Shown piece after piece: positions 1 through 17,021 of a DNA stretch of 21,808 nt. The notes beneath the pieces are model-generated. The model was not told where the DNA came from. It made no database searches and saw nothing but the letters and a program-made list of their open reading frames with translations. The stretch comes from Candidatus Hydrogenedentota bacterium. GTDB taxonomy: Bacteria > Hydrogenedentota > Hydrogenedentia > Hydrogenedentales > SLHB01. Every line of letters starts with the position of its first letter. Positions within the stretch are counted from its first letter, which is position 1. A program made the position numbers and the translations under genes. Where the stretch lies: positions 1 through 21,808 of the forward strand of contig JARKSN010000136.1 of NCBI GenBank assembly GCA_029974275.1, given 5' to 3'.

Positions 1-229
1 TCGGCCAGGAAGACGCCGACCGCGCAATCGCCCGACACTCCCCCTCGGGCAGTCCCCGCCGTTCGGGATGCGCCAGCAACTCGCGCAGGATCGCGGTTTC
101 GTCCAGCCCGCGCGCGCGAAGCGCCCCGGCCACGCTGGTCAACGCGCAGTTGCGGCCCGCGCCGTTCGTCCCCGCGCGATTCCCCTTGACGCCGCCGCCG
201 CCTTTGTGAGATACTTCTGATGTAAACAT
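1..229 (-). CDS. Primase/replication protein, N-terminal part with PriCT-1-like helical domain (runs off the left edge; not in the ORF track)
   Basis: Manual translation from ATG at 229 gives MFTSEVSHKGGGGVKGNRAGTNGAGRNCALTSVAGALRARGLDETAILRELLAHPERRGLPEGECRAIARSASSWP..., matching the PriCT-1 pattern GRNxxLxxxAGxLRxxG...LPxxExxxIARS. It lies just downstream of an AlpA/Xis gene. Confidence 0.7.
   Translation of the reverse strand, partial: MFTSEVSHKGGGGVKGNRAGTNGAGRNCALTSVAGALRARGLDETAILRELLAHPERRGLPEGECRAIARSASSWP
186..215 (+). promoter_or_regulatory. Sigma70-like promoter antisense to the primase gene
   Basis: TTGACG (186-191), 18-nt spacer, extended -10 TGnGATACT (207-215); points at the terminator at 246-275. 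Confidence 0.55.
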
Positions 230-245
230 TTTGGCTACCTGCCAT

Positions 246-275
246 TCCCGCCGCGCCAACGGCGGGATTTTTTTT
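246..275 (+). terminator. Rho-independent terminator, antisense to xis/primase
   Basis: Perfect 8-bp stem TCCCGCCG (246-253) / CGGCGGGA (260-267) followed by T8 (268-275). Confidence 0.75.
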
Positions 276-511
276 CAGCCGCGCGCGGGTGCGTCGGCGC
301 CGTCAGCGTTCGCGGCCTCGGCCTCGCGTGCGATCCAGGCGTGAACGTCGGATGCACGCCAGCGAAGGCGATTGCCCACGCGGAACGGGCGAAGCGGAAA
401 CCGACCGCGATGCAGAGCGACGTGAATGCTATTCGGAGTCAGTCCGAACACTTGGGCAACGTCGCGCACCGAAAGCAGGGCATCGATCTGAGTGATTGAA
501 GGTGAAGTCAT
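275..511 (-). CDS. AlpA/Xis-family winged-helix DNA-binding protein (excisionase/recombination directionality factor)
   Basis: 78 aa MTSPSITQIDALLSVRDVAQVFGLTPNSIHVALHRGRFPLRPFRVGNRLRWRASDVHAWI... has the LLSxxDVAxxFG...GRFPxP...RWxxSDVxAWI pattern. Start moved from 580 to ATG 511 because of the GAGGGGAG RBS. Confidence 0.85.
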   Translation of the reverse strand: MTSPSITQIDALLSVRDVAQVFGLTPNSIHVALHRGRFPLRPFRVGNRLRWRASDVHAWIAREAEAANADGADAPARG

Positions 512-653
512 CAGGTTTTCTCCCCTCGAAAGTCTCTGACAAGGTTTACAGAGGGGAGAGGAGGGTGTCAACCTGTGCAAGACATATTAAACATGATAGG
601 TATGTAACGGCCGCATGAAAATCGAACGGCCATTACATACCGATGCAGAGGGG

Positions 654-1445: not shown

Positions 1446-2708
1446 TTAGGGTTCGGGATTCATCGTCACCACCTTCGCCCCGGAAATAATGCTATCCATT
1501 TCATCGCCGATGGCCTCGGACACTACACGCCATGGGGAGTCATCCACGTGGGAATACCGCGCGGTCATCTTTGAGCCGGGTTTGTGGCCCAGCAGCTTGC
1601 CCAACATGGGCAGCGATGCCTTCACCCCCACGCCGATAGTCGCAAAGCTATGCCTCAGGTCATGCACCCGCAGCCCCTCGATTTCCGCCAGCTTGCACGC
1701 CGCGGCCCATGCCTTTTTGATCTCCTGCACTGGCTGTCCCTCAACCTCGCCAGGAAAAACCCAGCCCTCCCGCTTGCGCTTGATGTCGTTCAGCACCTTG
1801 AGCGCTTGCCGGTTCAGCACCACTTTTTTCCTTCCGCTCTTGCTGTCGGGGAGATTCAAACAGGCGCCGTCGAGGTCCACGTGCTCCCAGCGTAAATTCA
1901 AGATTTCGCCCCGCCGGCAACCAGTAAAGATCAACAGCCTGATGGCTTCGATTGCCGGCTGCCGGACGAACCGCGGTTCACGCTCCAAGGTGCCGAGAGC
2001 AGCCCACAGACGCGAGAGTTCATCGGGTGAAAGATACCTGTCGCGTTGCCGGTCGGCTTCGTCGTAACGCCTGACACCTTTGCAGGGGTTGCCCTCGATG
2101 GCCGTCCGATATTTCCAATCGACAGCCATGGTCATCATGTGAGAGAGCAGTGCAAAGGTCCGATTGGCTGCAATGGGTCGCTCGTGCATCGAAGCATGAA
2201 GGCGTTGCACGTCGCCCCTCTCGATGGCCCGGACGTCATGCCGTCCCAATACCGGCTCGACATGTTTTTCGAACATGATGCGGTCGGTTTCCAGACTGGT
2301 CGGCTTCTTGTGGACCTCCGCGAAGTCGCGTCGATAGATCTTCCAGAAGTCAGAGAGCGCCACCCTTTTTTCGGACACCCGCCGCGCGGCCATCGGGTCT
2401 TTGCGGTCGGCCACCTCGCCCATCAGCTTCCTGGCCGCCGGCCGTGCATCGTCCAGTGTCATGCTTGCAGCAGAGCCCAGCGTCTGCCGTCGCTGCGTCT
2501 TGTCGGTCTTCGTGCGATAGTCCACGAAATAAGACTTCTTGCCTGATGGATGCACCACAACCCCCAGCCCCGGTACGCCAGCATCCCACACACGGATGCG
2601 CCGGGCAGGATCTGGCGCCAAGTCCATCACGGCTTTCTGTGTGAGCCGTACGGCCCGCCCCTTCTTGCCCTTCACGGTCGCCTCATCGGTCGTCATTTGA
2701 CTGCCCAT
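1446..2708 (-). CDS. int: Tyrosine recombinase/integrase, P4-like, with N-terminal arm-binding domain (Arm-DNA-bind_3/DUF4102-like)
   Basis: N-terminal WDAGVPGLGVVVHPSGKKSYFVDYR; catalytic motifs TGCRRGEI, DSKSG, HDLRHSFA, LLGH, TARYSH. Confidence 0.95.
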   Translation of the reverse strand: MGSQMTTDEATVKGKKGRAVRLTQKAVMDLAPDPARRIRVWDAGVPGLGVVVHPSGKKSYFVDYRTKTDKTQRRQTLGSAASMTLDDARPAARKLMGEVADRKDPMAARRVSEKRVALSDFWKIYRRDFAEVHKKPTSLETDRIMFEKHVEPVLGRHDVRAIERGDVQRLHASMHERPIAANRTFALLSHMMTMAVDWKYRTAIEGNPCKGVRRYDEADRQRDRYLSPDELSRLWAALGTLEREPRFVRQPAIEAIRLLIFTGCRRGEILNLRWEHVDLDGACLNLPDSKSGRKKVVLNRQALKVLNDIKRKREGWVFPGEVEGQPVQEIKKAWAAACKLAEIEGLRVHDLRHSFATIGVGVKASLPMLGKLLGHKPGSKMTARYSHVDDSPWRVVSEAIGDEMDSIISGAKVVTMNPEP

Positions 2709-2761
2709 TGAATTTAGACCTCTTGACTTTCTGCCCGCTTGGGGCGGGGTAAAAAAGGCCG

Positions 2762-2780
2762 GGTCAACAAATGGTCAACA
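2762..2780 (+). repeat. Left pair of integrase arm-type direct repeats (GGTCAACA x2)
   Basis: GGTCAACA at 2762-2769 and 2773-2780, 11-bp period. Confidence 0.65.
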
Positions 2781-2797
2781 TCCGGCCGCAAAAGACA

Positions 2798-2833
2798 GCA
2801 TACTGCCGCATACTCTGAAACATCAAGCATAAT
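2798..2833 (+). repeat. Helically phased GCATAMT repeats, candidate Xis/AlpA binding sites
   Basis: GCATACT 2798-2804, GCATACT 2808-2814, GCATAAT 2827-2833, lying between the arm repeats and the att core. Confidence 0.4.
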
Positions 2834-2909
2834 GCGTAAATAAAGGAGTTCTAGGGATTTGTGAGCAAATCGACTGTATGCATTAGGTTTATGAAAAACT
2901 ATCCGATGC

Positions 2910-2956
2910 GACTGGCAGTCAAGAGGTCCGGGGTTCGATTCCCCGTATCTCCACCA
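2910..2956 (+). tRNA. Partial tRNA-Ala(GGC): 3' half only, serving as att core; not a functional tRNA
   Basis: GA-CTGGCAG-TCAAGAGGTC-CGGGGTTCGATTCCCCG-TATCTCCACCA gives the anticodon loop with GGC, T-arm, acceptor 3' strand and CCA. No D-arm or 5' acceptor strand upstream. Confidence 0.85.
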
Positions 2957-2978
2957 TCCTCAATCGCCAACAAATCGC

Positions 2979-3008
2979 CCCCCGCCGCACGGCGGGGGTT
3001 TTTGTTTT
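2979..3008 (+). terminator. Rho-independent terminator after the tRNA-Ala fragment
   Basis: CCCCCGCC-GCAC-GGCGGGGG-TTTTTGTTTT. Confidence 0.8.
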
Positions 3009-3010
3009 GG

Positions 3011-3029
3011 GGTCAGCCCTGGGTCAACA
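3011..3029 (+). repeat. Right pair of arm-type direct repeats (GGTCAGCC / GGTCAACA)
   Basis: GGTCAGCC 3011-3018 and GGTCAACA 3022-3029; same 11-bp period and orientation as the left pair. Confidence 0.6.
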
Positions 3030-3487
3030 GCTCCAAATGGTACGACATCACCTCTGGATCCAAGTCACCCCCCAGGCCTCGCATTTACAGCCTTCACTTC
3101 CCCTCCCAACGCTCTTCTTCGGTTTAATGATGACTGAAACTGAATGTTTCGTCTTGTGTGATTCATTCACTCGGTTGCCTGTCGCTTAAAGGTCCGGTTG
3201 AGGGGGAGCCTGTTTGCCGTGGAAAGTGATCAGACGTATTCCGCGTCTTCTACAATATTGAATAACGCTTGATTCCCACTCAGAACGACTAAGCTATGTC
3301 CATAGTCGAGCGGAAGCAGGTAGCAACCTCTTCAGGTCTTGACTTTTTCATTCGGCTCGTGCAGACATAGTGAGCGATTAAGATACTCGTATCGTATTGC
3401 CGCGTCACTTTGCTGCGTCACTGCATTTTGCGATGGGGAGGGGAATGCCATTGAGTTCCGGCACCTTCTGGCCGACTTGACGAGGGC

Positions 3488-3523
3488 GCTTCAATGGAGC
3501 CGCGCTTTTTTGAGCGCGGAATT
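3488..3523 (-). CRISPR. Solitary CRISPR-repeat-like unit (type I-G/I-U-like); no array and no cas genes in the window
   Basis: Minus strand AATTCCGCGCTCAAAAAAGCGCGGCTCCATTGAAGC (36 nt): 7-bp stem CCGCGCT/AGCGCGG and 3' ATTGAAGC handle, the architecture of type I-G repeats. Only one copy seen. Confidence 0.6.
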
Positions 3524-3554
3524 CAATGGATGCTCACTGGGAACCTGACATGAT

Positions 3555-3588
3555 GTAAGCGTCCGCTCTAGGCCGTCTTGATAGGCGC
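3555..3588 (+). repeat. IS66 left terminal inverted repeat
   Basis: GTAAGCGTCCGCTCTAGGCCGTCTTGATAGGCGC. Confidence 0.92.
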
Positions 3589-3635
3589 GGGGTGATGTGA
3601 GCAAATCGGGCCATTGTTTTTCGGAGGTGAAAGCG

Positions 3636-4028
3636 ATGGCTCAACGCAGAGGCCGCGATTTGGAGAAAGAGGCGCTGTGGCGCGGGCGACTGGCCGAGCA
3701 GGCGGCCAGTGGCTGCTCGATTTGCGCCTGGTGTCGCCAGAACGGCATCCAGGACGCGCTGTTTCATTACTGGAAGCGCACGATCGCGCGGCGCGACTCA
3801 AGCCCTGGGGCGTCTGACAGCGCGGCTCCCAGTGCCGCAGGCGATCGGGCGCTGTTTGCCCGGGTTGTTCTGACGCCGCCCCCCGCGCCGACCCTTGCCC
3901 AATCGCGCCCGGGGGACGGTTGTCTGGAACTGATCGTTGCCGGCGGCCATGTGGTGCGTGTCCCGGCCGGCTTCGACGCGCCGACGTTGGCGCGCGTGCT
4001 GGACGTGCTGGCGGCGCGCCCATGCTGA
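3636..4028 (+). CDS. tnpA: IS66 accessory protein TnpA (HTH)
   Basis: WRGRLAEQAASGCSICAWCRQNGI...FHYWKR HTH and C-terminal VRVPAGFDAPTLARVL. ATG at 3636 follows a GGAGGTG RBS; ATGCTGA overlap with tnpB. Confidence 0.9.
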   Translation: MAQRRGRDLEKEALWRGRLAEQAASGCSICAWCRQNGIQDALFHYWKRTIARRDSSPGASDSAAPSAAGDRALFARVVLTPPPAPTLAQSRPGDGCLELIVAGGHVVRVPAGFDAPTLARVLDVLAARPC

Positions 4029-4390
4029 GCCTGCCCCCCGCGGCGCGCATCTGGCTGTGCACCGAGCCGACCGACATGCGCAAGAGTTTCGACACGCTGG
4101 CCGCGCTTGTGCGCCGCAGTCTGGGCCGCGACCCGCTCTCGGGCAGCCTGTTCGTCTTCGTCGGCCGGCGCGCCGACCGGCTCAAGATCCTCTACTGGGA
4201 CCGCGACGGTTACGCGCTGTGGGCCAAGCGCCTGGAGCGCGGCACGTTCCGGCTGCCGCTGGCGGGCGCGCAGGACGGCGCTGTGGCGCTCAGCCCGGCC
4301 GAGCTGGCGATGCTGCTCGAAGGGATCGAGCTGGCCGGGACGCAGCGGCGCAAAAGGATAATTTCAAATATTAATTGTGAATATCATTAG
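4022..4390 (+). CDS. tnpB: IS66 accessory protein TnpB (Orf2; unrelated to IS605 TnpB nucleases)
   Basis: PTDMRKSFDTL...LFVFVGRRADRLKILYWDRDGYALWAKRLERGTF signature; start set at ATG 4022. Confidence 0.93.
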   Translation: MLSLPPAARIWLCTEPTDMRKSFDTLAALVRRSLGRDPLSGSLFVFVGRRADRLKILYWDRDGYALWAKRLERGTFRLPLAGAQDGAVALSPAELAMLLEGIELAGTQRRKRIISNINCEYH

Positions 4391-4452
4391 ATTTCTATTG
4401 ACATTCACGCGTTGCGTGGCAGGATGGCGCATCCTGCCTGGAAACCGTCGCC

Positions 4453-6084
4453 GTGAGCAAGCCCGATCAGCGCCGCCTGCCCGCCACGCTGGAAGAATCG
4501 CACGTGCTGATCGGCGACCTACTGGCTGAGAATCGCCAGATGCAGGCGCGGATCGACTGGCTGGCACGCAAGGTCTTCGGCCGATCCAGCGAGCGTCTCG
4601 CCGCGGGAGAGCCGGACTTTTTCGGCCAGCCCTTCGCGCCTGAACAGAATGCCAATGATAATGCCGGTGACAATGCCGCCGATCCAGCCGGTCCGGCAAA
4701 CAATGCTAATGACAATCCCGGCGTCATGTCCAAACGTGCCGCCCGCCGCTCGGCGCTGGACGATCTGCCGCGCCAGGTCATCGTCCACGACGTGGCCGGG
4801 GCCGACAAGCGCTGCGCCTGCGGCCGCGAGAAAACCCGCATCGGCCAGGACGACAGCGAACAACTCGAATACATCCCGGCCTCGGTCTTCATGCTCCAGC
4901 ACGTCCGGCCCAAGTATGCCTGTCCCGCCTGCCACGACGGCGTCGTCCAGGCCCCCATGCCGGCCATGCCGATCGAGCGCGGCGCCGTCGGCCCCGGCCT
5001 GCTGGCCCACCTGATCGTCAGCAAGTACGCCGACCATCTGCCCCTCCACCGCCAGGAATCGATCCTGGCGCGCCACGGCATCGACCTGCCGCGCTCGCTG
5101 ACCTGCGAATGGGTCATGAAATCGGCTGAACTGCTCGAGCCCGTGGCCGCGGCGATGCGGCGCGAAATCCTGGCGGGCGCGCTGGTGAGCACCGATGACA
5201 CGCCCGTCGACGTGCACACCAAACAGGGTAATCACCAGGCGCGTCTGTGGACTTACGTCGGCGATCCGCTCCATCCCCACACCGTCTACGACTTCACCTG
5301 GGACCGCACGGGCGAAGGGCCCCGCAAGTTCCTGGCCGGTTTCGCCGGCACGCTCCAGGCCGATGCCTTCAGCGGCTACGACGCGCTGTTTCGGGTCGAT
5401 CCGAAAAATCCCAAAAAGATCCCGCCCATCGAGGCCGGTTGCCTGGCCCACGCCCGGCGCAAGTTCCACGACGCGCGCGCCGAGGATCCGCTCGTGGCGC
5501 TGCCGATCCTCGCGCTCATGCGCGAGCTTTACGATTTTGAACGCGAGGCCAAGGATCGCTGGCCGGTGCTCCGGCAGGCGCGGCCCGACCCGCATGAACT
5601 GGCCGTCGCCCTCGCCGGCCGGCTCGCCCTGCGCCGGGAAAAATCGGCCCCGCGGATGGAAACGCTCAAGGCGCGCCTGCTCGCGCTCAGGGATCAGGTG
5701 TTGCCCAAAAGCGGCCTGGGCGGTGCGGTCGGGTATGCGCTGGGCCATTGGAAGGCGCTCTCACGGTTCCTGGAAGACGGCCTCGTCGCGATCGACAACA
5801 ACGCGGCCGAGCGCGCCATCCGGCCGCTGGCCCTGGGCCGCAAAAACTGGCTGCACCTGGGCAGCCGGCGCGGCGGAAAGGCCGCCGCCACCCTCTTCAC
5901 GCTGGTCCAAAGCGCCCGGCGCCACGGCATCGACCCGTTCCAATACCTGCGCGACCTGCTCACCCGCATCCCCACGCACCGGCACAGCCAGATCCACGAA
6001 CTCTTCCCCGATAACTGGCTCAAACTGCGCCAGGAAGCCGCCTCCGATAAAGCCGTCGCGCCCGCGGAGCCCGCCGACCTCTGA
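4453..6084 (+). CDS. tnpC: IS66 DDE transposase TnpC
   Basis: FGRSSE, zinc-finger CACG...CPAC, SKYADHLPLHRQ, DDTPV, LQADAFSGY, CLAHARRKF, IDNNAAERAIRPLALGRKNWL. Confidence 0.97.
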   Translation: MSKPDQRRLPATLEESHVLIGDLLAENRQMQARIDWLARKVFGRSSERLAAGEPDFFGQPFAPEQNANDNAGDNAADPAGPANNANDNPGVMSKRAARRSALDDLPRQVIVHDVAGADKRCACGREKTRIGQDDSEQLEYIPASVFMLQHVRPKYACPACHDGVVQAPMPAMPIERGAVGPGLLAHLIVSKYADHLPLHRQESILARHGIDLPRSLTCEWVMKSAELLEPVAAAMRREILAGALVSTDDTPVDVHTKQGNHQARLWTYVGDPLHPHTVYDFTWDRTGEGPRKFLAGFAGTLQADAFSGYDALFRVDPKNPKKIPPIEAGCLAHARRKFHDARAEDPLVALPILALMRELYDFEREAKDRWPVLRQARPDPHELAVALAGRLALRREKSAPRMETLKARLLALRDQVLPKSGLGGAVGYALGHWKALSRFLEDGLVAIDNNAAERAIRPLALGRKNWLHLGSRRGGKAAATLFTLVQSARRHGIDPFQYLRDLLTRIPTHRHSQIHELFPDNWLKLRQEAASDKAVAPAEPADL

Positions 6085-6136
6085 GCACCCGGCCCCGCGA
6101 ACCGGACAATCCCGCCCCATCCTCCCGCAATCTCCA

Positions 6137-6170
6137 GCGCCATTCAAGACGGCCTACAGCGGACGCTTAC
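6137..6170 (-). repeat. IS66 right terminal inverted repeat
   Basis: Reverse complement GTAAGCGTCCGCTGTAGGCCGTCTTGAATGGCGC. Confidence 0.92.
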
Positions 6171-6628
6171 GGAAGTGGTGCGCCCTGACGACGTATATGG
6201 GGTGCGCTTTGTGCGCGCCACGACTAGCGAAGATGGTCGGCGGTGTGTGACCTTTTGAATTTCTGAACCGGATGACGTGCTACGCAGGGCGGGTAGTCCT
6301 CGTGGCTCCCATACGGGCTCGCTTCCTCACGATTGCCCCAGACCCGTAGTCTGACCCAATCCACCCATATATCAATCCCACGCGGCAGATCGGCTTCTGA
6401 CGGTCGTTCCCATGTTGGTTGGTTTATATCAGTGGGACCATCCGTTGGTTCCCATCAACTTGTGCGGAGCAATCGCTCCCGTAGGAGGGCATAGCATGCC
6501 ATTCAAGTTTCGAGTGCTATCGCAGGCAGGGGAAGGCTCTAGCTACTGGAGCCGGCGCCGGCACATGTGCCGCAGGTCGCTCCTGACTTGCACCAGATCG
6601 ATCGTTTGGAAATCGGGGGCAGAGCGTC

Positions 6629-7840
6629 ATGCGATTGCGTAGGCGTGAAGGCAAGATGGGAGGAGCGTGGTATATCGACTACGTTGACCGCGCAGGAAAG
6701 AGGCGACGCCACACCCTGAAGGGCATCACGACCAAAAGAAGCGCGGAACTCGCCCTTGCCCAGTTTCGATTGAAGCTTGAGCGTGAACAGATGGACCTTC
6801 CAGTCGATGAGAATCTTGCTCTCTCTGACGCGCTTGATGCGCTGGTCACGAACCGCCGGCTTGCGGGGTGCTCCCAAGGATGGCTCGTCCGGCTCAAGAG
6901 CTGCCGAAACCATCTTGAGGAGTATTTCGGGGCGGAAAGGCGACTGATGGATTTGAGCGACACCAGGATCGCCCAGTACCGTATCGCCCGACTTGATGAG
7001 GACGTGGCAGTAGAGACCGTCAACAAGGAGTTGAAGACGCTTGCGGCTGCAGGTCGCCTCGCGGTTCAACAGAATAAGCTCACCAAGCTCCCTTGGCACA
7101 AGATCGATCTGGCAATTGATCGGACAGGCAAGGAAGTCTGGAACTATCTGACGGAAGACGAAACCAAGAAGCTGCTGCACTTGTTGCGACACGGGGGCGA
7201 GCGCCAGACCATCGAGAAGAAGAACGGCAGGAGCTACAGCTTCGAAGTTCAGCCATCGCCGCGCCTTTGGGCGATCGTGACGTTCCTCCTCAACACGGGA
7301 GCACGGAAGGGTGAAATGTTCGCTCTCCGTTGGTCCGACGTCAACACGGAGAACCGGACGGTGCGTCTGGTGGGATCGAAATCAGCGAAGAACGGCAAGA
7401 GCGCCAAAGCGCGTTACATCCCGATGAACGAGGAGTTGCTCATTCTTTTCAACGAGCTGGAGCGAGGTGCGCCAAGTGACGTCGTCTTTCCGATGGAGAA
7501 GAATTTGCGCAAGAAGTTTTCGCAGTCTTTACGCTGGGCGGGACTGCGGCACTTTCGTATCCACGATCTCCGCCACACATTCGCTTCGCACCTCGCGATG
7601 AAAGGCGTCGCGCTCTACACGATCGCGCAGTTGCTGGGTCACAGCTCTACGGAGATCACGACGCGATACGCTCACCTGTCTCCCGAGAACATGGCATCGG
7701 CTGTTCAGCTACTGGGCTTTGGAGCAAGTCATCAGGACAAAGCAGAAACTTCCAACACACCGCAAGCTGCCACCGCCGAGGATGCAACAACAAGCGACGA
7801 AAACGTCTCAAGCACCCTTGAAAACGCTCTCCATCCCTGA
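6629..7840 (+). CDS. int: Tyrosine recombinase/phage-type integrase (second element)
   Basis: N-terminal WYIDYVDRAGKRRRHTL arm-binding-like region; ETVNKEL; TGARKGE, HDLRHTFAS, LLGHSS, TRYAHL. Ends 31 nt before a tRNA fragment. Confidence 0.94.
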   Translation: MRLRRREGKMGGAWYIDYVDRAGKRRRHTLKGITTKRSAELALAQFRLKLEREQMDLPVDENLALSDALDALVTNRRLAGCSQGWLVRLKSCRNHLEEYFGAERRLMDLSDTRIAQYRIARLDEDVAVETVNKELKTLAAAGRLAVQQNKLTKLPWHKIDLAIDRTGKEVWNYLTEDETKKLLHLLRHGGERQTIEKKNGRSYSFEVQPSPRLWAIVTFLLNTGARKGEMFALRWSDVNTENRTVRLVGSKSAKNGKSAKARYIPMNEELLILFNELERGAPSDVVFPMEKNLRKKFSQSLRWAGLRHFRIHDLRHTFASHLAMKGVALYTIAQLLGHSSTEITTRYAHLSPENMASAVQLLGFGASHQDKAETSNTPQAATAEDATTSDENVSSTLENALHP

Positions 7841-9372: not shown

Positions 9373-11715
9373 TTATCGGCTCTCCACGCCGCCGAGACTT
9401 GCCGCGGGGAGATCATTTTCAATAAATGAACGGTCGAACAGATGTAGGGTAGACGGACTCTCGGCGGCCATGATCAAGTCCAGACGGCCGTCGCCATTCC
9501 AGTCGGCGGCGTCGAACGCACTCGCATGATTGTAGGTTTGGATAATCCGCCCGCCGGCCCGGAACGGGCCGTGAGCCCTGAAGAGGGGCGCCGTGGGCGT
9601 GCCGACATTTTCATAATAGCGCACGGCGTAAAGGCTGCCGTTAATCAGGTCCAGCAGGCCGTCGGCGTTCCAGTCAACCAGCAGGCTGTGATTATCTCCA
9701 TTATTATTCGCGTCATAGAAGAAGCCGCGAACGGGTTGTCCGGTCTCGAGGCGCAGGGGATATTTAATACGCACATTAAGAACGGCAGGGTCGGATTGGT
9801 CGGGCGCATCCTCGTAGGCGTAGAACACATTGTCGCGATCGGAGGTGACGACAAACTCCACGCGACCGTCGCCGTCGAGATCGCCGGCGCCCAGCTTGGA
9901 GCGCCAGGAAAACTCATAGGGATCGCCGTCGCAGCGGACTTCCCGACCTTTCGAGAAGCGGGGTTGGGCGCGCGTCCCAATGTTTTCAAAATACTGGACC
10001 TGCCAGCGCTGGCCCGTCACGAACAGGTCGAGGCGACCGTCGCCATTCCAATCGATGACGCGAGATTGCATGGCGGCGGCAGTTGCTTCGCCGGGGCCCT
10101 GCGGTCCCCAGTGAGAGGGCTCCTCGGCCTGGGGATCAAGCCAGTTCACCAGATTGATCGGCTGGCCGTCGGCCAGGATGGTCTCACCGCGGTCGAAGAC
10201 CGGGTTCATCAGCGTCCCGAGATTCCGATGAAACAGAATTGTATTAGAATATGTAGCACAGACGAGATCGAGGAGGCCGTCGGCATCCCAGTCGACGGAG
10301 TCAACGGAAAAAGCGGTCGGCCGGGGATAGAGCTCCCGGGCGCTGTCGTAAGCGCGCTCGTTGTTTTCCCAGGGTGGCGGCGCGGGCAGCGGCATGATGA
10401 ACAACGGGGCCTCGCGCGAGCCGACATTTTCGGCCCACATTGTCCGGGCTCCCTCGAGTGGACGACCGCTCCAGTCAGAAAAGACAAGGTCGAAGTCGCC
10501 GTCGCCATCGCGATCCTCGTAGGCCGGCTCGGCGCCGGTGGCGGTTGTAATCGGTCGATTGCGATCATCCCGGAGCACGACGGGGTTCGCGAAGCGGGGA
10601 TTATTCGATTCATCCAGGCCGATGTTGCGGAAGACTTCGAAAAAGGCGAGAAACGGGCCATAGGGAATCACGCTAAGGCGTGGATTTGTCTGGGCGGTGG
10701 CATGGTAGTGGCCGACGGTGAAAAGCAGGTCCTGCCGGCCGTCACCCTCCCAATCGGCGAAAGTGAAACGGTTCAGATAGAAGGACCGGTTGCCGACGGT
10801 CTCGGGCAGGGTTTCACGAAATTCGGATTCGCCATGGACCTGCATGACTTCGCGCGGCTGGCGGAAAATGTAGACGTTGTTCGCGTCGCGCCGACCGGTA
10901 TTTTCAACAACAAAAAGCGAAGTGGTGCGAAAGCCAATAAAATCCATCAGACTGTCTTCATTCCAGTCCATCGGCGAAAGGCTGAGATACATTTGCCCGG
11001 ATCCGAGCAGAAAATTGCCATCGTCGGCCTTGAGCCGGACAAAGTCGTCGTAGAGCTGATCGCGGGCCGTGCCGCGATTTCTGTAGAATTTAACCGTGTA
11101 CCCAAGACGATCCTCGAGCGGCATGCTGTATTCATAGGCGCGGACCGTGGCGACGATTCGGTCCGGCAGACCGTCGCCATCCCAGTCCACCTCGCCGCCG
11201 GTGGTATATCCAGGCTGCCCATCATTATAATGAAAACTGTCGCCGATCCCGACGAGGCCGAGGGTTGTGGGCGGAGGCATGCGTCCATGATCCAGCGTGT
11301 CGAAGTAAATGTGATAATCGAGAGCCTGCCGGTCGGCCATACGCCACCAGACCCAGCCGGCCTCGTCGTTGCCCCAGTCGCCGGTAAGCTGATGTGGGAT
11401 GGCATATTCGTTGGGAAATTCAGGCCGCGAAAGGGGTCCGCCCGTCCGTGGATCGAACCGAACGACCTGAATGGAATTCAGATCAATTCGGCCCGGGATG
11501 GCGTTCTGTGAGAAAATGTCGGCAAAATCGAGCCGGACGCCGACGGGGGCATTGATGCGCTCCGACACGCCGGGATCAACCATGACGGCGATGCGGTAAT
11601 GATGTTCCGGCAGCGCCCACTGGGGCGGGGCGGCCAGCGAGCCTGGCGCGAGCGCCAGCGCGACGAGCAGCACTATCCACGCGGCGACGTCACGACCGGG
11701 GTTCGGGGTCTTCAT
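9373..11715 (-). CDS. Secreted FG-GAP/VCBS-repeat protein (780 aa), paralog of 14493-17021
   Basis: Signal peptide MKTPNPGRDVAAWIVLLVALALAPGSLA; many DW(D/N)xDGxxDL and F/YENxGTxxxPxF repeats. Start moved to ATG 11715 (GGAAGGA RBS; avoids overlap with the upstream gene). Confidence 0.85.
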   Translation of the reverse strand: MKTPNPGRDVAAWIVLLVALALAPGSLAAPPQWALPEHHYRIAVMVDPGVSERINAPVGVRLDFADIFSQNAIPGRIDLNSIQVVRFDPRTGGPLSRPEFPNEYAIPHQLTGDWGNDEAGWVWWRMADRQALDYHIYFDTLDHGRMPPPTTLGLVGIGDSFHYNDGQPGYTTGGEVDWDGDGLPDRIVATVRAYEYSMPLEDRLGYTVKFYRNRGTARDQLYDDFVRLKADDGNFLLGSGQMYLSLSPMDWNEDSLMDFIGFRTTSLFVVENTGRRDANNVYIFRQPREVMQVHGESEFRETLPETVGNRSFYLNRFTFADWEGDGRQDLLFTVGHYHATAQTNPRLSVIPYGPFLAFFEVFRNIGLDESNNPRFANPVVLRDDRNRPITTATGAEPAYEDRDGDGDFDLVFSDWSGRPLEGARTMWAENVGSREAPLFIMPLPAPPPWENNERAYDSARELYPRPTAFSVDSVDWDADGLLDLVCATYSNTILFHRNLGTLMNPVFDRGETILADGQPINLVNWLDPQAEEPSHWGPQGPGEATAAAMQSRVIDWNGDGRLDLFVTGQRWQVQYFENIGTRAQPRFSKGREVRCDGDPYEFSWRSKLGAGDLDGDGRVEFVVTSDRDNVFYAYEDAPDQSDPAVLNVRIKYPLRLETGQPVRGFFYDANNNGDNHSLLVDWNADGLLDLINGSLYAVRYYENVGTPTAPLFRAHGPFRAGGRIIQTYNHASAFDAADWNGDGRLDLIMAAESPSTLHLFDRSFIENDLPAASLGGVESR

Positions 11716-11743
11716 GTTCAAACCGTCCTTCCCGGCGGCGGAA

Positions 11744-14455
11744 TTAATAGCCAAGCGTTACTTCATCCAGTTCCGGGTAGTTGGAGCCGTCCCGGGAAAC
11801 AAACAGCGCGCGATATTGAAAAGCCTTTCCATGAAGGGGTTCCACCGGACCGGGAGATTGATAATAGGAATCAGGCCCGTCAGGACCCATCCAGTTCGCC
11901 TCGTCGAGTATTTCGGCGGAATCGGCCGCGCGAAGCTGGAACTTGACCTGTGAGCCAGCGGGCGTCGCGGCGCGCCAGTCGATCGAGCGGAGCGTCACGG
12001 GGTCAGCGGCTTCGATAACGCCGCTCACGAATCCGATCTCGTGCCGGCGCGTGTAGCTGTGACCGGGATCAAGGAAGGAGGTCTGGACGGCGCCGGCCGT
12101 GGGGAATTCCAACCGGCGGTCCTCGGAAAACCCCTCAGGTCCACCCCACAGGAGAAACGACTGGGTGACGTGAGTTCCATTGGCGGCTTTATGGCAGGAA
12201 AAGGCAAGATCAAGCCAGCCATCGGCGTTAAAGTCGAGCGGGACGCTGCCCGCGCCGCCGTTCGTGAAGAGGCTGGTGCGCCGGACGGGATCGAATCCGT
12301 CGGGCCCATTCCAATAGAGATAGGAGAAAGAGGTGCGGTCGCGCGCGCCCGTGCTTTCATTGCTGAAGCAGATGTCGAGAAAGCCGTTGCGGTCGAGATC
12401 GGCGACGCTCGCATGGACGGCGCCGACGGTCGGCAGTTCGGTACGGCGCGCGGGATTGAATCCGTCGGGCGCGCCCCAATAAATACGCGACAAAGTGTCA
12501 TTCTGCTTGCCACTATTAAATTCACTGTAGACCAGATCAAGCCAGCCGTCGCGATTCAAATCGGCTGGAGTAACGGAATTGCTCCCGTTGCTGGGCAGGC
12601 GAACAACTCTGGCCGTGGAGAAGCCGTCGGCCGATCCGAAGTAGATCGGGGCCGTTTCCTCGCCGTAATTCCCATAGGCAATGTCGAGCCAGCCATCCTT
12701 GTCGAAATCGCCAAGGCCGAGGCCAACCGTCATGTTCGTGCGCAGCGCGGAGGTATTTTCCTCACTGAACCCCTCCGGGCCACCCCAGTAGATGCGGTTA
12801 TTACCGTCGTTTTTCCATTCGCTGAAGATCAGGTCGAGCCAGCCGTCGCGATTCAGATCGCTCGTCAGGACGCAGAGCGCGCCTTTCGTGCGCAGAACCT
12901 GTTTACGGTCGTCGGAGAAGCCGTTCGCGGAACCCCAGAAAACAAAGCTGCCCTGATCCTTGAGCCATGGGGCAAACTCGAACGAATTGGCGATCGCCAA
13001 ATCGACGTAACCGTCCAGGTTGAGATCAGCGGCGGCCGACCCAATGCCGTCCCAGATCGTGAGCCGGGTCAGCCGGTCGCCCGAGAATCCGCCCTTGCCG
13101 TCATTCCAATGCAAATCCGCATAGGAGAAGGCATGGCCGGCGGTGGCATTGTAAAAAATCACATCAGGCAACTGGTCGTCGTTCACGTCGCTGATCTGCA
13201 CGTCGAGCGGGCCATGGGTGGGTAGTTCGGTGCGCCGCGCGATATCGAAGCCATCGGGCGATCCCCAGTAGACAAACGATGAGTGATTGAGAGAAAGCTC
13301 ACTCATCTTATTGGCGAAGACCAGATCGGGCCAGCCGTCACCGTTCAGGTCGCCGGTGGCGCACTGCGTGGCCCAGTCGGTGGGCAGTTCCAACTTCCTC
13401 GCGGGATCATAACCTGTAGGAGAACCCCAATAGATCAGGCTGTTCACGGTCTCGTAGACACTGTCATCCGTCGGTTGGTCGGCAAATGCGATATCGGAAT
13501 GACCATCCGAGTTAAGATCCGCGACAGCGCAGCCGACGGCATGCCGCGTGGGGAAGTGGGCCCGCGGGCGTTGGTCGAAGCCATCGGGTCCGCCGAAAAT
13601 AATGAGTGAGGGAGAGGGAGAATTCTTCGCGGCCGCCGCCACGACGAGATCGACGTGTGCATCCTGGTCCACGTCGGAGGCGGCGAAGCGCGTGACGCCG
13701 GGCGCGGTGATTTCCTCGACATTGTCTTCATTGAAACCAACCGGTTGATTCAACAGAATTAAAATGCGGTCCTTGCCGGCGGCGACCAGATCCAAGAGCT
13801 GGTCGCGATTGACATCGACAAGCTGAAGATAATCGGCCTCCGTTTGCAGTTCGGTTTTGCGGTCGGGGATGAATCCGTCTTCGCTATTCCAGTAAATCAG
13901 AATCCCGGCGCCGCGTTGGGCAAAGGCCAGATCCTTCCAGCCATCGTTGTTCAGATCGCCGGCCGCGCAGGAATAGGAAAAAAGGGTGGGCAGTCTGGTG
14001 AGATGCGTCAGCAGGAAACCACGTTCGGTGCCGTAATAAATGTAGGCATCGAGCGCGACCCGATTCATCCCGTTGGCGGTGCCGCAGAGGACCAGATCGG
14101 TCCGCCCGTCCTGATTGAGGTCCGCGGCGGTTCCGGAATAGGCGCCGTCGTTGAGCAATTTCCAGAGATGGCGCTGATCAAGGCCGCTCGCGGAATTGGT
14201 ATAAATGTAGGTGAAGGGAGAGTCGTTCAGGTCGTGCGAGTTGAGATACAGGACATCATTCGCACCGTCTCGATTGTAATCGAAGGTATAAATGCCGCTC
14301 ACGGTTCCACGGGCGGTCACGTAGAGATTAACGCCGCCGTCCTCGGCCGTGCCCGCGAGAAAATCCTCAAAAGTGGAGTGGGTCCAGGATTGCGCGACAA
14401 CGGTTCGCAGCATGGAGAGAAAAAGGAGCGAGGTTATCGCCATGGTTCGATTCAT
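11744..14455 (-). CDS. Secreted FG-GAP/VCBS-repeat protein (903 aa) with DLNxDGxxDL / IYWGSxDGF repeats
   Basis: Real start MNRTMAITSLLFLSMLRTVVAQS at 14455 (AGGAAAGG RBS, signal peptide); more than ten repeats; C-terminal non-repeat domain (WRAATPAGSQVKFQLRAA...FQYRALF). Confidence 0.87.
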   Translation of the reverse strand: MNRTMAITSLLFLSMLRTVVAQSWTHSTFEDFLAGTAEDGGVNLYVTARGTVSGIYTFDYNRDGANDVLYLNSHDLNDSPFTYIYTNSASGLDQRHLWKLLNDGAYSGTAADLNQDGRTDLVLCGTANGMNRVALDAYIYYGTERGFLLTHLTRLPTLFSYSCAAGDLNNDGWKDLAFAQRGAGILIYWNSEDGFIPDRKTELQTEADYLQLVDVNRDQLLDLVAAGKDRILILLNQPVGFNEDNVEEITAPGVTRFAASDVDQDAHVDLVVAAAAKNSPSPSLIIFGGPDGFDQRPRAHFPTRHAVGCAVADLNSDGHSDIAFADQPTDDSVYETVNSLIYWGSPTGYDPARKLELPTDWATQCATGDLNGDGWPDLVFANKMSELSLNHSSFVYWGSPDGFDIARRTELPTHGPLDVQISDVNDDQLPDVIFYNATAGHAFSYADLHWNDGKGGFSGDRLTRLTIWDGIGSAAADLNLDGYVDLAIANSFEFAPWLKDQGSFVFWGSANGFSDDRKQVLRTKGALCVLTSDLNRDGWLDLIFSEWKNDGNNRIYWGGPEGFSEENTSALRTNMTVGLGLGDFDKDGWLDIAYGNYGEETAPIYFGSADGFSTARVVRLPSNGSNSVTPADLNRDGWLDLVYSEFNSGKQNDTLSRIYWGAPDGFNPARRTELPTVGAVHASVADLDRNGFLDICFSNESTGARDRTSFSYLYWNGPDGFDPVRRTSLFTNGGAGSVPLDFNADGWLDLAFSCHKAANGTHVTQSFLLWGGPEGFSEDRRLEFPTAGAVQTSFLDPGHSYTRRHEIGFVSGVIEAADPVTLRSIDWRAATPAGSQVKFQLRAADSAEILDEANWMGPDGPDSYYQSPGPVEPLHGKAFQYRALFVSRDGSNYPELDEVTLGY

Positions 14456-14492
14456 TGCATTACCTTTCCTGCAAAATATACCGGCAAGCCAC

Positions 14493-17021
14493 CTATCTCC
14501 GCTGAAAGGCGCCGACGGTGGCCGACGCAAATTCGCCTTCAAGGTAATAACGACTAAAGAGATGCAATGGACTGCCGATCGGCTGATCCGATGGGCATTC
14601 CGCGCCGAGGACGAGATCCAGCCGACCGTCCCCGTCCCAGTCCGCGGCATCGAATGATCCGGCATGGTTGAAGGTGTGAAGATCCCGCCCGGCAAGCTGC
14701 ATGCGGCCGCGCGCCTTGAAGACGGGCTGCGCTTTCGTGCCGACATTCTCATACTGCCAGACGCCATACAGGCTGCCAATGAGCAGATCCAATTTGCCGT
14801 CGCCATTCCAATCGACCAACTGAGCGTGGTTGTCGCCGTTGTTGTTCTTGTTGCCAACCCGGCCCCGGACAGGATCGCCGGAATCAAGGAGCAGCGCGGG
14901 TCCACGGGTCAATTCCAGCACGGAGGCATCGTGTTGTTCGCGAGCTGGATAAAAGCAATAAAAAATATTATCCCGGGCGGAATGACCCACCAGCTCCGCG
15001 ACGCCATCGCCGTCGAGATCGCCGGCCGCGGGTTTGGAGCGCCAGGCGAACGCACGCTCATCGCCGTCCACGCGGACGGTTCTGCCGCGGGCGAGCTGGG
15101 GTTGGGCTCGGGAGCCGATATTTTCAAAGTACTTCGTCCGCCAGCATTGGGCCGTGACGAACAGGTCCAGATCGCCGTCGTGATCCCAATCGACACAGGT
15201 GGGGAGGGTCCAGCCGTAGTTGGGTTCGGAGGGTCCCTGGGGGCCCCAATGGTAGATTTCACCGGTTTCGGGGTCGGTCCAATTCGAATTGGGCAGATAA
15301 ATCGGACGCCCGCCGGCTTCGACCTTTACACCGCGAGCGAACGATGGATGCAGCGTAGAGCCCTTATTCACATAGAGCAGGACGCAGGATTGAAAGCCGC
15401 CGAGCAGATCCAGATCGCCGTCGTTGTCCCAGTCGACGCTGATCGTGAAGTAGGTGAGGATCGGCGGGTCGACCTGTTGAGCCAGGCCGCGCGAGACAAA
15501 ACGGGGCAGAGTCCATGGGTGGGGGCGGCGCGAACCCGAGGGGCGGGTGGGCGGCTCAATCGGGGCGGCGGCGCCGCTGAGCGGATTGATGTTTTCAAAC
15601 AACTCGCCGCCGGCAAACAGATCAAAGCGCCCGTCATGGTTCCAGTCGCAGACGATCGGCGGGCCCTGGATTGGAAGAATCGGCGTGCCTTCAAGCAGAA
15701 GGGGCTCGCGCCGCGTCCGGTCGTTCTCGGCAAGCATCAGGCGGCCCCCTTCGAGGGGGCGCGTGGTCAGGTCGAAGTAGAGCAAGTCGAAATCGCCGTC
15801 ATTGTCCCAGTCGAGGTATTCCGGGCCGCCGGGGGCCAGGGCAAACGCGGTGATCGGCAGACCGCGCGATTCGAGGATCGGCACGGGATCCGAGAATTGG
15901 AGAATTCCCTGGTCGTCGCCGACGCGTTCATACAATTCGAAATGCATCAGGGCGGCGCCGTAGGGCATGACGCCCGTGGTCGGGTCGACCTCCTTCAACA
16001 GATTGACGCAGGCCCACGCGACGATCAGGTCCAGATCGCCGTCGCCCTCCCAGTCAACCCGTCGCAAACCCTTGCAGGTGAAGCTCGGCGTCCGAACGAC
16101 GCCGGGCATTTCGGCGCGGAACTGCGAGACAGGAAGATCCATGATCGGGACGGGTTGATTGAGCATCAGCAGGCCGTGGGCGTCGCGCGAGCCGGTGTTT
16201 TCCCACAGCAGGAGCGTGTTTCCGGCGACGCCGGCAAAATCCATGTCGCCGTCGCCGTCCCAGTCCATCGGATGCATGTTCTGGCCGAGTTGGTCGGTGC
16301 GCAGCCATGCGCCATTACGATCCTTCATGCGAAGCCGGGGCGCAAACAGAGGATTTTCATTGGAGCCGATATTTTTCAGAAAATAAACGCCATTGCCCAG
16401 ATTCTCTTCAAGGTCCTCGCCGTGTTCATAGATGCGGAAGGCGATGCCGATGAGGTCGAAGACGCCGTCGCCATCCCAGTCGAGCGGCCAGAAGGTCGAG
16501 TGCAGGGGCACGCAGTCGGCCGGACCGGGCTGTCCGTCATGGTAGTGGAAGGTATCGCCGATGCCGATCGGTCCTGAAGTCGGAAAAGGAGCGGCCTCGC
16601 CTGCGACCGCCGCGCGGAATTCCGTTTCAAAATAAAGATAATAACTTCGGGCTGACGCATCCGGAGCGCGCCACCACAACGTGACCGGCCCGTAGGAACG
16701 CGTGTCTCCCGTCAGCGCGAACGGAAGTTCCGTTTGGATGGTATTGGTGGACAACTCCTGGTGAGCGCCAATACGCATCAATCGAAGCGATGAATAGCTG
16801 ACAACGCCTGAGATCGAGTTGTCGGACAACAATCTATTCAGATCGAGCTCCAGGCACGCGAGGGAATTGGTGGAGGCAGGGTCGCCGGTGTCGCAGTCGA
16901 TCGCGACGCGAAACCGATGGGGCAGGACCCAGTCGGACCCGTCGGCCGCCCGGGCGGCGGAATCCCATGCAAACATTGCAATCAGCAGGACGAGATGGCC
17001 AGCGCGCGTCCGCCATTTCAT
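14493..17021 (-). CDS. Secreted FG-GAP/VCBS-repeat protein (842 aa), paralog of 9373-11715
   Basis: Signal peptide MKWRTRAGHLVLLIAMFAWDSAARA; DWDGDGDxD and ENxGxxxxPxF repeats. Confidence 0.87.
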   Translation of the reverse strand: MKWRTRAGHLVLLIAMFAWDSAARAADGSDWVLPHRFRVAIDCDTGDPASTNSLACLELDLNRLLSDNSISGVVSYSSLRLMRIGAHQELSTNTIQTELPFALTGDTRSYGPVTLWWRAPDASARSYYLYFETEFRAAVAGEAAPFPTSGPIGIGDTFHYHDGQPGPADCVPLHSTFWPLDWDGDGVFDLIGIAFRIYEHGEDLEENLGNGVYFLKNIGSNENPLFAPRLRMKDRNGAWLRTDQLGQNMHPMDWDGDGDMDFAGVAGNTLLLWENTGSRDAHGLLMLNQPVPIMDLPVSQFRAEMPGVVRTPSFTCKGLRRVDWEGDGDLDLIVAWACVNLLKEVDPTTGVMPYGAALMHFELYERVGDDQGILQFSDPVPILESRGLPITAFALAPGGPEYLDWDNDGDFDLLYFDLTTRPLEGGRLMLAENDRTRREPLLLEGTPILPIQGPPIVCDWNHDGRFDLFAGGELFENINPLSGAAAPIEPPTRPSGSRRPHPWTLPRFVSRGLAQQVDPPILTYFTISVDWDNDGDLDLLGGFQSCVLLYVNKGSTLHPSFARGVKVEAGGRPIYLPNSNWTDPETGEIYHWGPQGPSEPNYGWTLPTCVDWDHDGDLDLFVTAQCWRTKYFENIGSRAQPQLARGRTVRVDGDERAFAWRSKPAAGDLDGDGVAELVGHSARDNIFYCFYPAREQHDASVLELTRGPALLLDSGDPVRGRVGNKNNNGDNHAQLVDWNGDGKLDLLIGSLYGVWQYENVGTKAQPVFKARGRMQLAGRDLHTFNHAGSFDAADWDGDGRLDLVLGAECPSDQPIGSPLHLFSRYYLEGEFASATVGAFQRR

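Follow-up and report, generated by a model that had tools for sequence, protein, structure and literature searches.

A solitary type I-G CRISPR repeat was identified at positions 3488-3523 of the analyzed stretch of DNA (21,808 nt, referred to as the window in the following), where it lies on the minus strand next to an insertion sequence of the IS66 family. The unit is a genuine type I-G CRISPR repeat. With a probability of about 0.6, it once formed the trailer end of a type I-G array, which was disrupted by the IS66 element, and its lone state may partly reflect assembly across this IS. The features of the window that are relevant in this context are the following:

2..259, minus strand: fragment of a PriCT primase gene (left-hand island)
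275..580, minus strand: AlpA-like HTH protein gene (left-hand island)
1446..2708, minus strand: P4-type tyrosine integrase gene (Pfam Phage_integrase, 78.9 bits; Arm-DNA-bind_3; SAM_3)
2910..2956, plus strand: 3′ 47 nt of a tRNA-Ala(GGC), an attachment-site remnant (no complete gene according to ARAGORN)
2979..2998: terminator hairpin with a T-run (region up to 3008), following the tRNA-Ala(GGC) fragment
3448..3487, minus strand: trailer-side flank of the repeat with an inverted leader-end motif and an inverted junction copy
3488..3523, minus strand (crRNA sense): solitary type I-G CRISPR repeat, 36 nt, read from the sequence and a family model
3524..3554, minus strand: gap between repeat and IS66, 31 nt, less than one spacer length
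3555..6170, plus strand: IS66-family element with three ORFs (transposase at 4453-6084) and terminal inverted repeats
6629..7840, plus strand: second tyrosine integrase gene (Pfam Phage_integrase, 105.8 bits)

Structure and Uniqueness of the Repeat

A first-pass annotation of this DNA had described a 36-nt minus-strand unit with a perfect 7-bp stem and a 3′ handle, which could be confirmed at 3488-3523. Positions 5-11 of the repeat pair with positions 18-24, resulting in a stem of 7 bp with a 6-nt loop, and the stem is followed on its 3′ side by CTCC (4 nt) and the 8-nt handle ATTGAAGC. The anatomy is that of the Thioalkalivibrio type I-G repeats as given in the available text of Shangguan et al. 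(bioRxiv 10.1101/2022.08.08.503147), which have 36 nt and a 7-bp stem, are cleaved by Csb2 4 nt 3′ of the stem and yield a crRNA with an 8-nt 5′ handle; for the repeat described here, the cleavage site at the same distance from the stem is predicted from the sequence. Unlike the Thioalkalivibrio repeats, the lone repeat stands outside any array.

Within the window the repeat is unique at up to three mismatches, and none of 100 shuffled sequences contained a match. The comparison of the 36-mer with the host genome, which had been proposed earlier, likewise revealed no other copy at up to three mismatches in the whole assembly (4.38 Mb, 342 contigs). For a covariance model, 20 family repeats from arrays were aligned, from which the identical 36-mer was omitted. 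The model scores the repeat with 55.6 bits (E-value 2e-13), and two array repeats of the same genome, located on contig C319, with 54.2 and 53.7 bits. In the alignment of the 20 repeats, covariation was observed at the stem pair 11-18 (C-G vs. T-A). The lone repeat and the two repeats on C319 are the only strong copies in the assembly. With the filters switched off, the model detected no second copy in the window, so that no array, i.e., at least two repeats with a spacer, is present there; the next best match in the window (13.6 bits) covers only the stem and is located inside the IS66 element.

No Rfam family matched the window at the gathering thresholds, and a permissive scan resulted in a sub-threshold match to CRISPR-DR16 (21.9 bits, gathering score 35). 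The repeat was found in none of 60 related genomes at up to three mismatches, and no match was obtained in viral contigs.

Matching Arrays and Type I-G Genes in Other Genomes

The assignment to type I-G had already been made in the first-pass annotation and proved right, as array repeats identical to the lone repeat in 36 of 36 and 35 of 36 positions exist and arrays of the family adjoin type I-G genes. For the detection of related arrays, one genome per species was scanned with a pattern in which the stem and the 18-nt 3′ part were fixed and the loop was left free. In total, 20 loci were obtained, counted as 17 contigs from 13 genomes, which are mostly labelled Kiritimatiellia, Opitutales, Verrucomicrobia, Planctomycetota, Phycisphaerae, and Lentisphaerales. 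All matches are located in or adjoin arrays of 2 to 128 repeats, including four seemingly single matches that turned out to be variant repeats within long arrays. The closest named array repeat is found in an Opitutales genome with 84-94 copies and is identical to the lone repeat in 33 of 36 positions.

Furthermore, metagenomes were scanned with an exact 34-mer, by which three contigs (L026, L027, and L028) could be identified. L028 carries an array of 15 repeats that are identical to the lone repeat in 35 of 36 positions. L027 contains cas4/1, cas2, a leader and three repeats, of which the first, leader-proximal one is identical in all 36 positions. In L026 a leader homologous to that of L027 is followed by a single repeat without a spacer. 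The spacers in these arrays have a length of 35-41 nt.

The cas genes of the family were typed with NCBIfam models. Cas8g2, Csb1/Cas7g, Csb2, and Cas4g/Cas1g were found over the cut-off on L023; Csb1, Csb2, and Cas4g/Cas1g on L010; and Csb2 and Cas4g/Cas1g on L009. A Cas4g/Cas1g fragment is present on L027, and on L026 only the 77 N-terminal positions of Cas3g are left, which run straight into the leader. In the relatives, the family of the lone repeat thus adjoins genes for Csb1, Csb2, Cas8g, and Cas4/1, as is the case for type I-G.

Some further observations were made in these loci. An ORF between csb2 and cas4/1 in the Opitutales I-G locus (L009, 2763-3566) resembles a Hef/XPF-type nuclease and scores 173 bits with the C-terminal part of the Hef model. 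A box, GCTCGCAAA or GCTCGAAAAC, is common to the leaders of the family (L008, L010, L013, L015, L021, L023, L026, L027, and C319). It precedes the first repeat by approx. 50 nt and may be a conserved leader element. Isolated single repeats are located 200-700 nt past the array end in L014 (8031-8066, oriented), L017 (6590-6625), and L018 (3522-3557); in L014 and L017, a second copy of the trailer sequence follows the isolated repeat.

The Type I-G Locus of the Same Genome

According to the first-pass annotation, neither cas genes nor a second copy of the repeat are present. For the window this holds true, since none of the 21 scanned ORFs codes for a Cas protein and the repeat occurs once. At the genome level it does not, as cas4/1 and cas2 are present together with a related mini-array on another contig of the assembly (C319, 1,824 bp). 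A Pfam Cas1 match with 296.7 bits was obtained on this contig, and the corresponding reading frame fits positions 176-546 of the Cas4g/Cas1g fusion model (491 bits) before it runs off the contig end. It is followed by cas2 and by an array consisting of a 186-nt leader, two repeats, two spacers (one of them full) and a degenerate third repeat (approx. 36-71). The C319 repeats are identical to the lone repeat in 26 of 36 positions; TTCCGCGC, the last 18 nt and a 6-bp core stem are common to both, and the loop differs. The same repeat type as on C319 occurs in the arrays L018 and L021, which are labelled Kiritimatiellia. Within the host family, arrays matching the family model were found in 2 of 53 other genomes.

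The search for csb1 and csb2 proposed in the first-pass annotation was negative for both genes in the fragmented assembly of 342 contigs, in which C319 is broken inside cas4/1; Csb2 was searched for with the family model as well as with the L023 protein as a query. As a positive control, the same Csb1 and Csb2 models score well on L023 and L010. Likewise, neither a stand-alone Cas4 nor a Cas3 or Cas3g over the cut-off was found in the assembly.

An ORF on C96 that weakly matches Cas3g was identified as a generic SF2 helicase. Two further repeat-like matches, C185:2559-2601 (29.2 bits with the family model) and C19:32506-32519, were rejected as coding sequence, which was read from their translations and not from a family scan, and a k-mer scan of the assembly for more arrays yielded only tandem coding or non-CRISPR repeats.

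Genomic Neighborhood and the IS66 Element

To the left of the repeat, the window contains an island with the primase fragment, the AlpA-like gene and an ORF without an assigned function, which is also encoded on the minus strand, as well as the P4-type integrase gene and the tRNA-Ala(GGC) fragment. An intact, non-identical tRNA-Ala(GGC) is located at the end of contig C212. The region 2845-2956 was at first read as a tmRNA (Rfam, 20.6 bits), which was discarded because the tmRNA of the genome on C112 has a different 3′ end. Between the tRNA fragment with its terminator and the repeat, there are about 530 nt of non-coding DNA with a G + C content of 52%. To the right, the repeat is followed by the 31-nt gap, the IS66 element, 458 nt and the second integrase gene. 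Of 132 other genomes of the order, six contain relatives of this integrase, with an identity of only 33-36%. An IS-free homologue of the repeat and its flank (2957-3554), which the first-pass annotation had suggested looking for, was found in none of 60 relatives.

The IS66 element has terminal inverted repeats of 37 nt, which are imperfect (89%), and its transposase matches the Pfam domain DDE_Tnp_IS66 with 271 bits, in addition to the zf-IS66, LZ, and C-terminal domains. In the assembly it is present as a single copy. A simple insertion of an IS66 element gives an 8-bp target-site duplication. Here, the flanking 8-mers GACATGAT and GGAAGTGG differ, and the element is therefore without such a duplication. 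Both statements of the first-pass annotation on the IS were thus borne out: the missing duplication, and a start of IS66 31 nt from the repeat on the would-be leader side, which is set by the inverted ends.

The 31 nt between repeat and IS (3524-3554) are probably the 3′ part of a spacer that was cut by IS66, as judged from their position and length. No resemblance to the L026 and L027 leaders was detected, as 2785 and 2891 of 3000 shuffled sequences, respectively, score as well. A putative degenerate repeat upstream of the unit found no support, with at least 1194 of 5000 shuffles scoring as well. For 24 nt of this flank (window 3528-3551), no protospacer match was found. The last 7 nt of the gap together with the first 2 nt of the repeat form a 9-nt duplicate of the handle part TCCATTGAA.

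The Trailer-Side Flank

On the other side, the 3′ end of the repeat is directly adjoined by the same 10 nt (3478-3487) with which the C319 leader ends. In C319 these adjoin the 5′ end of the first repeat, and the motif is thus inverted relative to the lone repeat. As the 10-mer is found at 19 sites when both strands of the 4.38-Mb assembly are counted, and as it is anchored at both repeat borders, the probability of such a match by chance is in the order of 1e-5, without a correction for its post hoc discovery. When a 200-nt flank was aligned with the leader, no significant similarity resulted (126 of 1000 shuffles). A second feature of the flank is found at 3448-3460, which is an inverted copy (12 of 13 positions) of the junction CCATTGAATTCCG that was created by the 9-nt duplication 5′ of the repeat. 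A degenerate inverted repeat at 3448-3487 was rejected, because the similarity is limited to the first 13 nt (2970 of 5000 shuffles for the rest), as was a trailer homology with L026 (969 of 1000 shuffles).

The protospacer search for both flanks that had been proposed earlier resulted in nothing beyond chance matches of 18-19 nt. When the trailer-side flank was compared with viral contigs with every sixth base left free, no protospacer match was obtained, and its first 18 nt match two loci in viral contigs, where both matches break off after 19 nt, as expected by chance for this collection. Conversely, 546 distinct spacers from arrays of the family were compared with the assembly, in which besides the self-match of the C319 spacer only chance matches of 16-22 nt were found, none of them on the contig of the window.

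The inverted leader-end motif is not explained by a plain relic. If it is not due to chance, it could be a recombination product at the repeat borders, where Cas4/1-Cas2 acts, or alternatively a guide aimed at the leader.

Occurrence in Other Metagenomes

Parts of the window region 2900-3700 are present in 20 sequencing runs from 17 studies, with at least half of the sampled words in six of them. The source labels of the metagenomes include wastewater, activated sludge, digester, and biofilm. In the RNA runs X19 and X20, only 5% of the sampled words were found. The contigs of four runs (X2, X3, X4, and X6) were placed on the window region 2700-6800.

One contig of X6 (record 27) spans 3286-3716 with two differences. 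It bridges the junction between repeat and IS66, and the junction is therefore real and recurs in another study. In X2, record 1 covers 2910-3437, and its letters to the left complete an intact tRNA. This allele lacks the left-hand island and represents an empty site, which places the flank of the repeat outside the left-hand island. Contigs in which two repeats enclose 36-39 letters were found in three of the four runs (X2, X3, and X4), so that arrays with this repeat live in those communities.

A contig of X3 starts from the other side of the element: the right IS66 end (6171) is followed by 13 letters and then by a copy of the repeat, i.e., the IS is located 14 nt from the repeat. The sum of both distances minus 8 nt (31 + 14 - 8 = 37) corresponds to a spacer length, but the 8-mers of the window and of X3 do not match. 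The IS-repeat joint of X3 is therefore not simply the other half of the IS66 insertion in the window. Other flanks of the IS were seen as well. Record 8 of X2 and record 32 of X6 reach position 6171 and continue for 29 and 42 letters, respectively, outside the part placed on the window, and the same applies to 304 letters past the left IS end in record 14 of X3. From these letters it follows that IS66 has other flanks elsewhere. The window region 6262-6800 was not covered in X2, X3, X4, or X6, which does not show its absence there, and the adjacency of the two IS66 sides is uncertain for this reason.

Compared with the window, the contigs of the four runs show no difference in 3385-3523 and ten differences (nine substitutions and a 1-nt deletion) in 3023-3384, a weak contrast in view of the few contigs. 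The contig depths of array pieces and flank are similar in X2, X3, and X4, which carries no weight.

Origin of the Solitary Repeat

According to the preferred reading, the repeat would be the last, trailer-end repeat of a type I-G array, and IS66 would have landed in the adjoining spacer, 31 nt upstream in the crRNA sense. The leader-side part, consisting of further repeats, the leader and perhaps cas genes, would no longer be joined to the repeat in the contig, owing either to an IS66-associated rearrangement or to the assembly, in which a multi-copy IS would have linked the contig to an unrelated flank. Given that IS66 has other flanks in the metagenomes and that a target-site duplication is missing, either of these two events may have brought the sides of the window together. 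As it stands, the repeat would be a relic without a function of its own; given read-through transcription, Csb2, the Cas5-Cas6 fusion of type I-G, could still bind the hairpin and cleave the RNA 8 nt upstream of the 3′ end of the repeat.

That an array was once attached at 3488-3523 is suggested by several results. An IS-amputated array was one of two options offered in the first-pass annotation, and it is now the favored one, since arrays with exactly this repeat exist, the IS-side flank is of spacer length and unlike any leader, the target-site duplication is missing and IS66 adjoins the repeat from the other end in X3. Collapsed I-G loci of the same repeat type also occur, with one repeat in L026 and two spacers in C319, and no promoter-like (sigma-70-like) site was found on either strand in 2800-3800. 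Against the preferred reading, terminal repeats are usually degenerate (C319, L006, L008, and L016), whereas the lone repeat is perfect. No allele of the locus itself that is IS-free or bears an array was recovered, and the loop differs from that of the only array of the assembly, so that the parent array is not in hand. The trailer-side features, i.e., the 10-nt leader-end match, the 9-nt handle duplication and the inverted junction copy, are non-random, and the absence of differences in 3385-3523, compared with ten in the neighboring segment, counts weakly in the same direction.

The stranded repeat adds a further case to a known phenomenon. Orphan and remnant CRISPR repeats are known as isolated arrays or as stand-alone repeats that are found away from cas genes after the decay of an array. 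Like these, the repeat belongs to a known subtype, has no adjacent cas genes, adjoins genes of mobile elements and bears the scar of a rearrangement in the form of an IS without target-site duplication. It differs from them in being undegraded and in the end-anchored inverted copy of the leader end in its trailer flank.

An array might also have collapsed to one repeat, or have stayed at one, before or independently of the arrival of IS66. The shrinkage would then be due to recombination between repeats, the 31 nt would not be a spacer, and the repeat would still be a relic, from which IS66 amputated nothing. The one-repeat state of L026 with the same repeat type is a precedent, as are the isolated repeats 200-700 nt past the arrays in L014, L017, and L018, and the lone repeat starts with AA like the leader-proximal repeat of L027, whereas internal repeats start with AT. 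L026 has kept its leader, however, and the 31 nt are unlike the leaders of L026 and L027; the missing target-site duplication and the IS-repeat joint in X3 moreover point to IS activity inside arrays, which makes this course of events unlikely. A role as a decoy is rather improbable. In this case the repeat would be transcribed and bound by Csb2 and Cas7g and would thereby titrate the I-G proteins of the host away from their crRNAs, in the manner of the RNA anti-CRISPRs (Racrs). The latter are described in the available text of Camara-Wilpert et al. (2023, PMC10651486) as single repeat units that are carried by mobile elements. As in a Racr, a solitary repeat mimics the repeat of a host array where Cas6-type proteins read it: it is fully intact and agrees with the C319 repeats in the stem and the 18-nt 3′ part, so that resident proteins could plausibly recognize it. 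It is located between an att-type tRNA fragment and integrase genes. Unlike the Racrs of that text, it is found neither in a virus nor in a plasmid and has no promoter or acr neighbor. Racr candidates were picked there for a promoter within 250 bp upstream, whereas here no promoter-like site was found in 2800-3800 and the place of the promoter is occupied by IS66. The searches of viral contigs and of the 60 relatives (up to three mismatches) were negative, no acr or aca genes were found among the ORFs of the window, and the assembly yielded no match for Csb1, Csb2, or Cas3g over the cut-off, with Csb1 and Csb2 models that score well on L023 and L010. The intact-tRNA allele of X2 furthermore puts the repeat outside the left-hand island. 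The available text of PMC10651486 does not mention type I-G.

It is highly improbable that the unit acts as a crRNA-like regulator of the CreA, CreR, or Cracr kind, with the handle and the downstream flank as a guide onto the leader-repeat junction of C319. Csb2 would cut the unit, and Cascade would bind the junction without cutting it and thus block the transcription of the array or the uptake of spacers. The 10-nt identity anchored at both repeat borders, with its chance probability in the order of 1e-5, is in line with this, and for viral crlRNAs, 9-10 PAM-proximal pairs are sufficient according to the available text of Liu et al. (bioRxiv 10.1101/2024.10.29.618823). The unit shares with the Cracrs described there a repeat-like part, a guide-like stretch and ten PAM-proximal matches to a site inside the CRISPR-cas locus of the host. 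It is unlike them in that the target is the leader-repeat junction and not a cas or toxin promoter, and in having neither a PAM nor a terminator. The would-be PAM is AAC, compared with the TTN reported for type I-G in the available text of Shangguan et al. (bioRxiv 10.1101/2022.08.08.503147), which is perhaps not that of this clade. In the genome there are 101 sites with the 9-nt seed, including the flank of the unit itself and the C319 site, and only two of them are preceded by TTN. Flank and leader are otherwise unlike (126 of 1000 shuffles). A second repeat remnant or a terminator that would end the RNA was not found, and neither were a promoter-like site in 2800-3800 or the effector genes in the assembly. 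The option of a Racr or regulatory mimic, which the first-pass annotation had put beside the amputated array, is thus unsupported, with no viral match, no promoter-like site, no effector genes and no PAM-flanked target found. If the mimic were real, it would be an RNA anti-CRISPR that is aimed at a CRISPR leader and shuts off crRNA production or spacer uptake, which is described for no type in the available texts of the cited Racr and Cracr papers; the text of bioRxiv 10.1101/2024.10.29.618823 mentions neither "I-G" nor "leader," and its supplement could list I-G candidates.

As the relic of an IS66-disrupted array, the repeat would be an example of how type I-G CRISPR loci are eroded by IS66 in uncultured bacteria from wastewater and digesters. 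It also calls for caution in screens for RNA anti-CRISPRs, as a lone repeat next to an IS in a short-read bin may be the cut-off end of an array.

Additional Observations

Contig C222 of the assembly carries about 14 tandem copies of a 24-25-nt unit at 85600-85930, in non-coding DNA upstream of the start of an infC-like gene. These copies are un-CRISPR-like because they are without spacers. In the window itself, three large adjacent ORFs on the minus strand (9373-17021) code for proteins of 793, 1053, and 842 aa that are rich in FG-GAP/VCBS-type repeats, and one of these proteins also has a GEVED domain.
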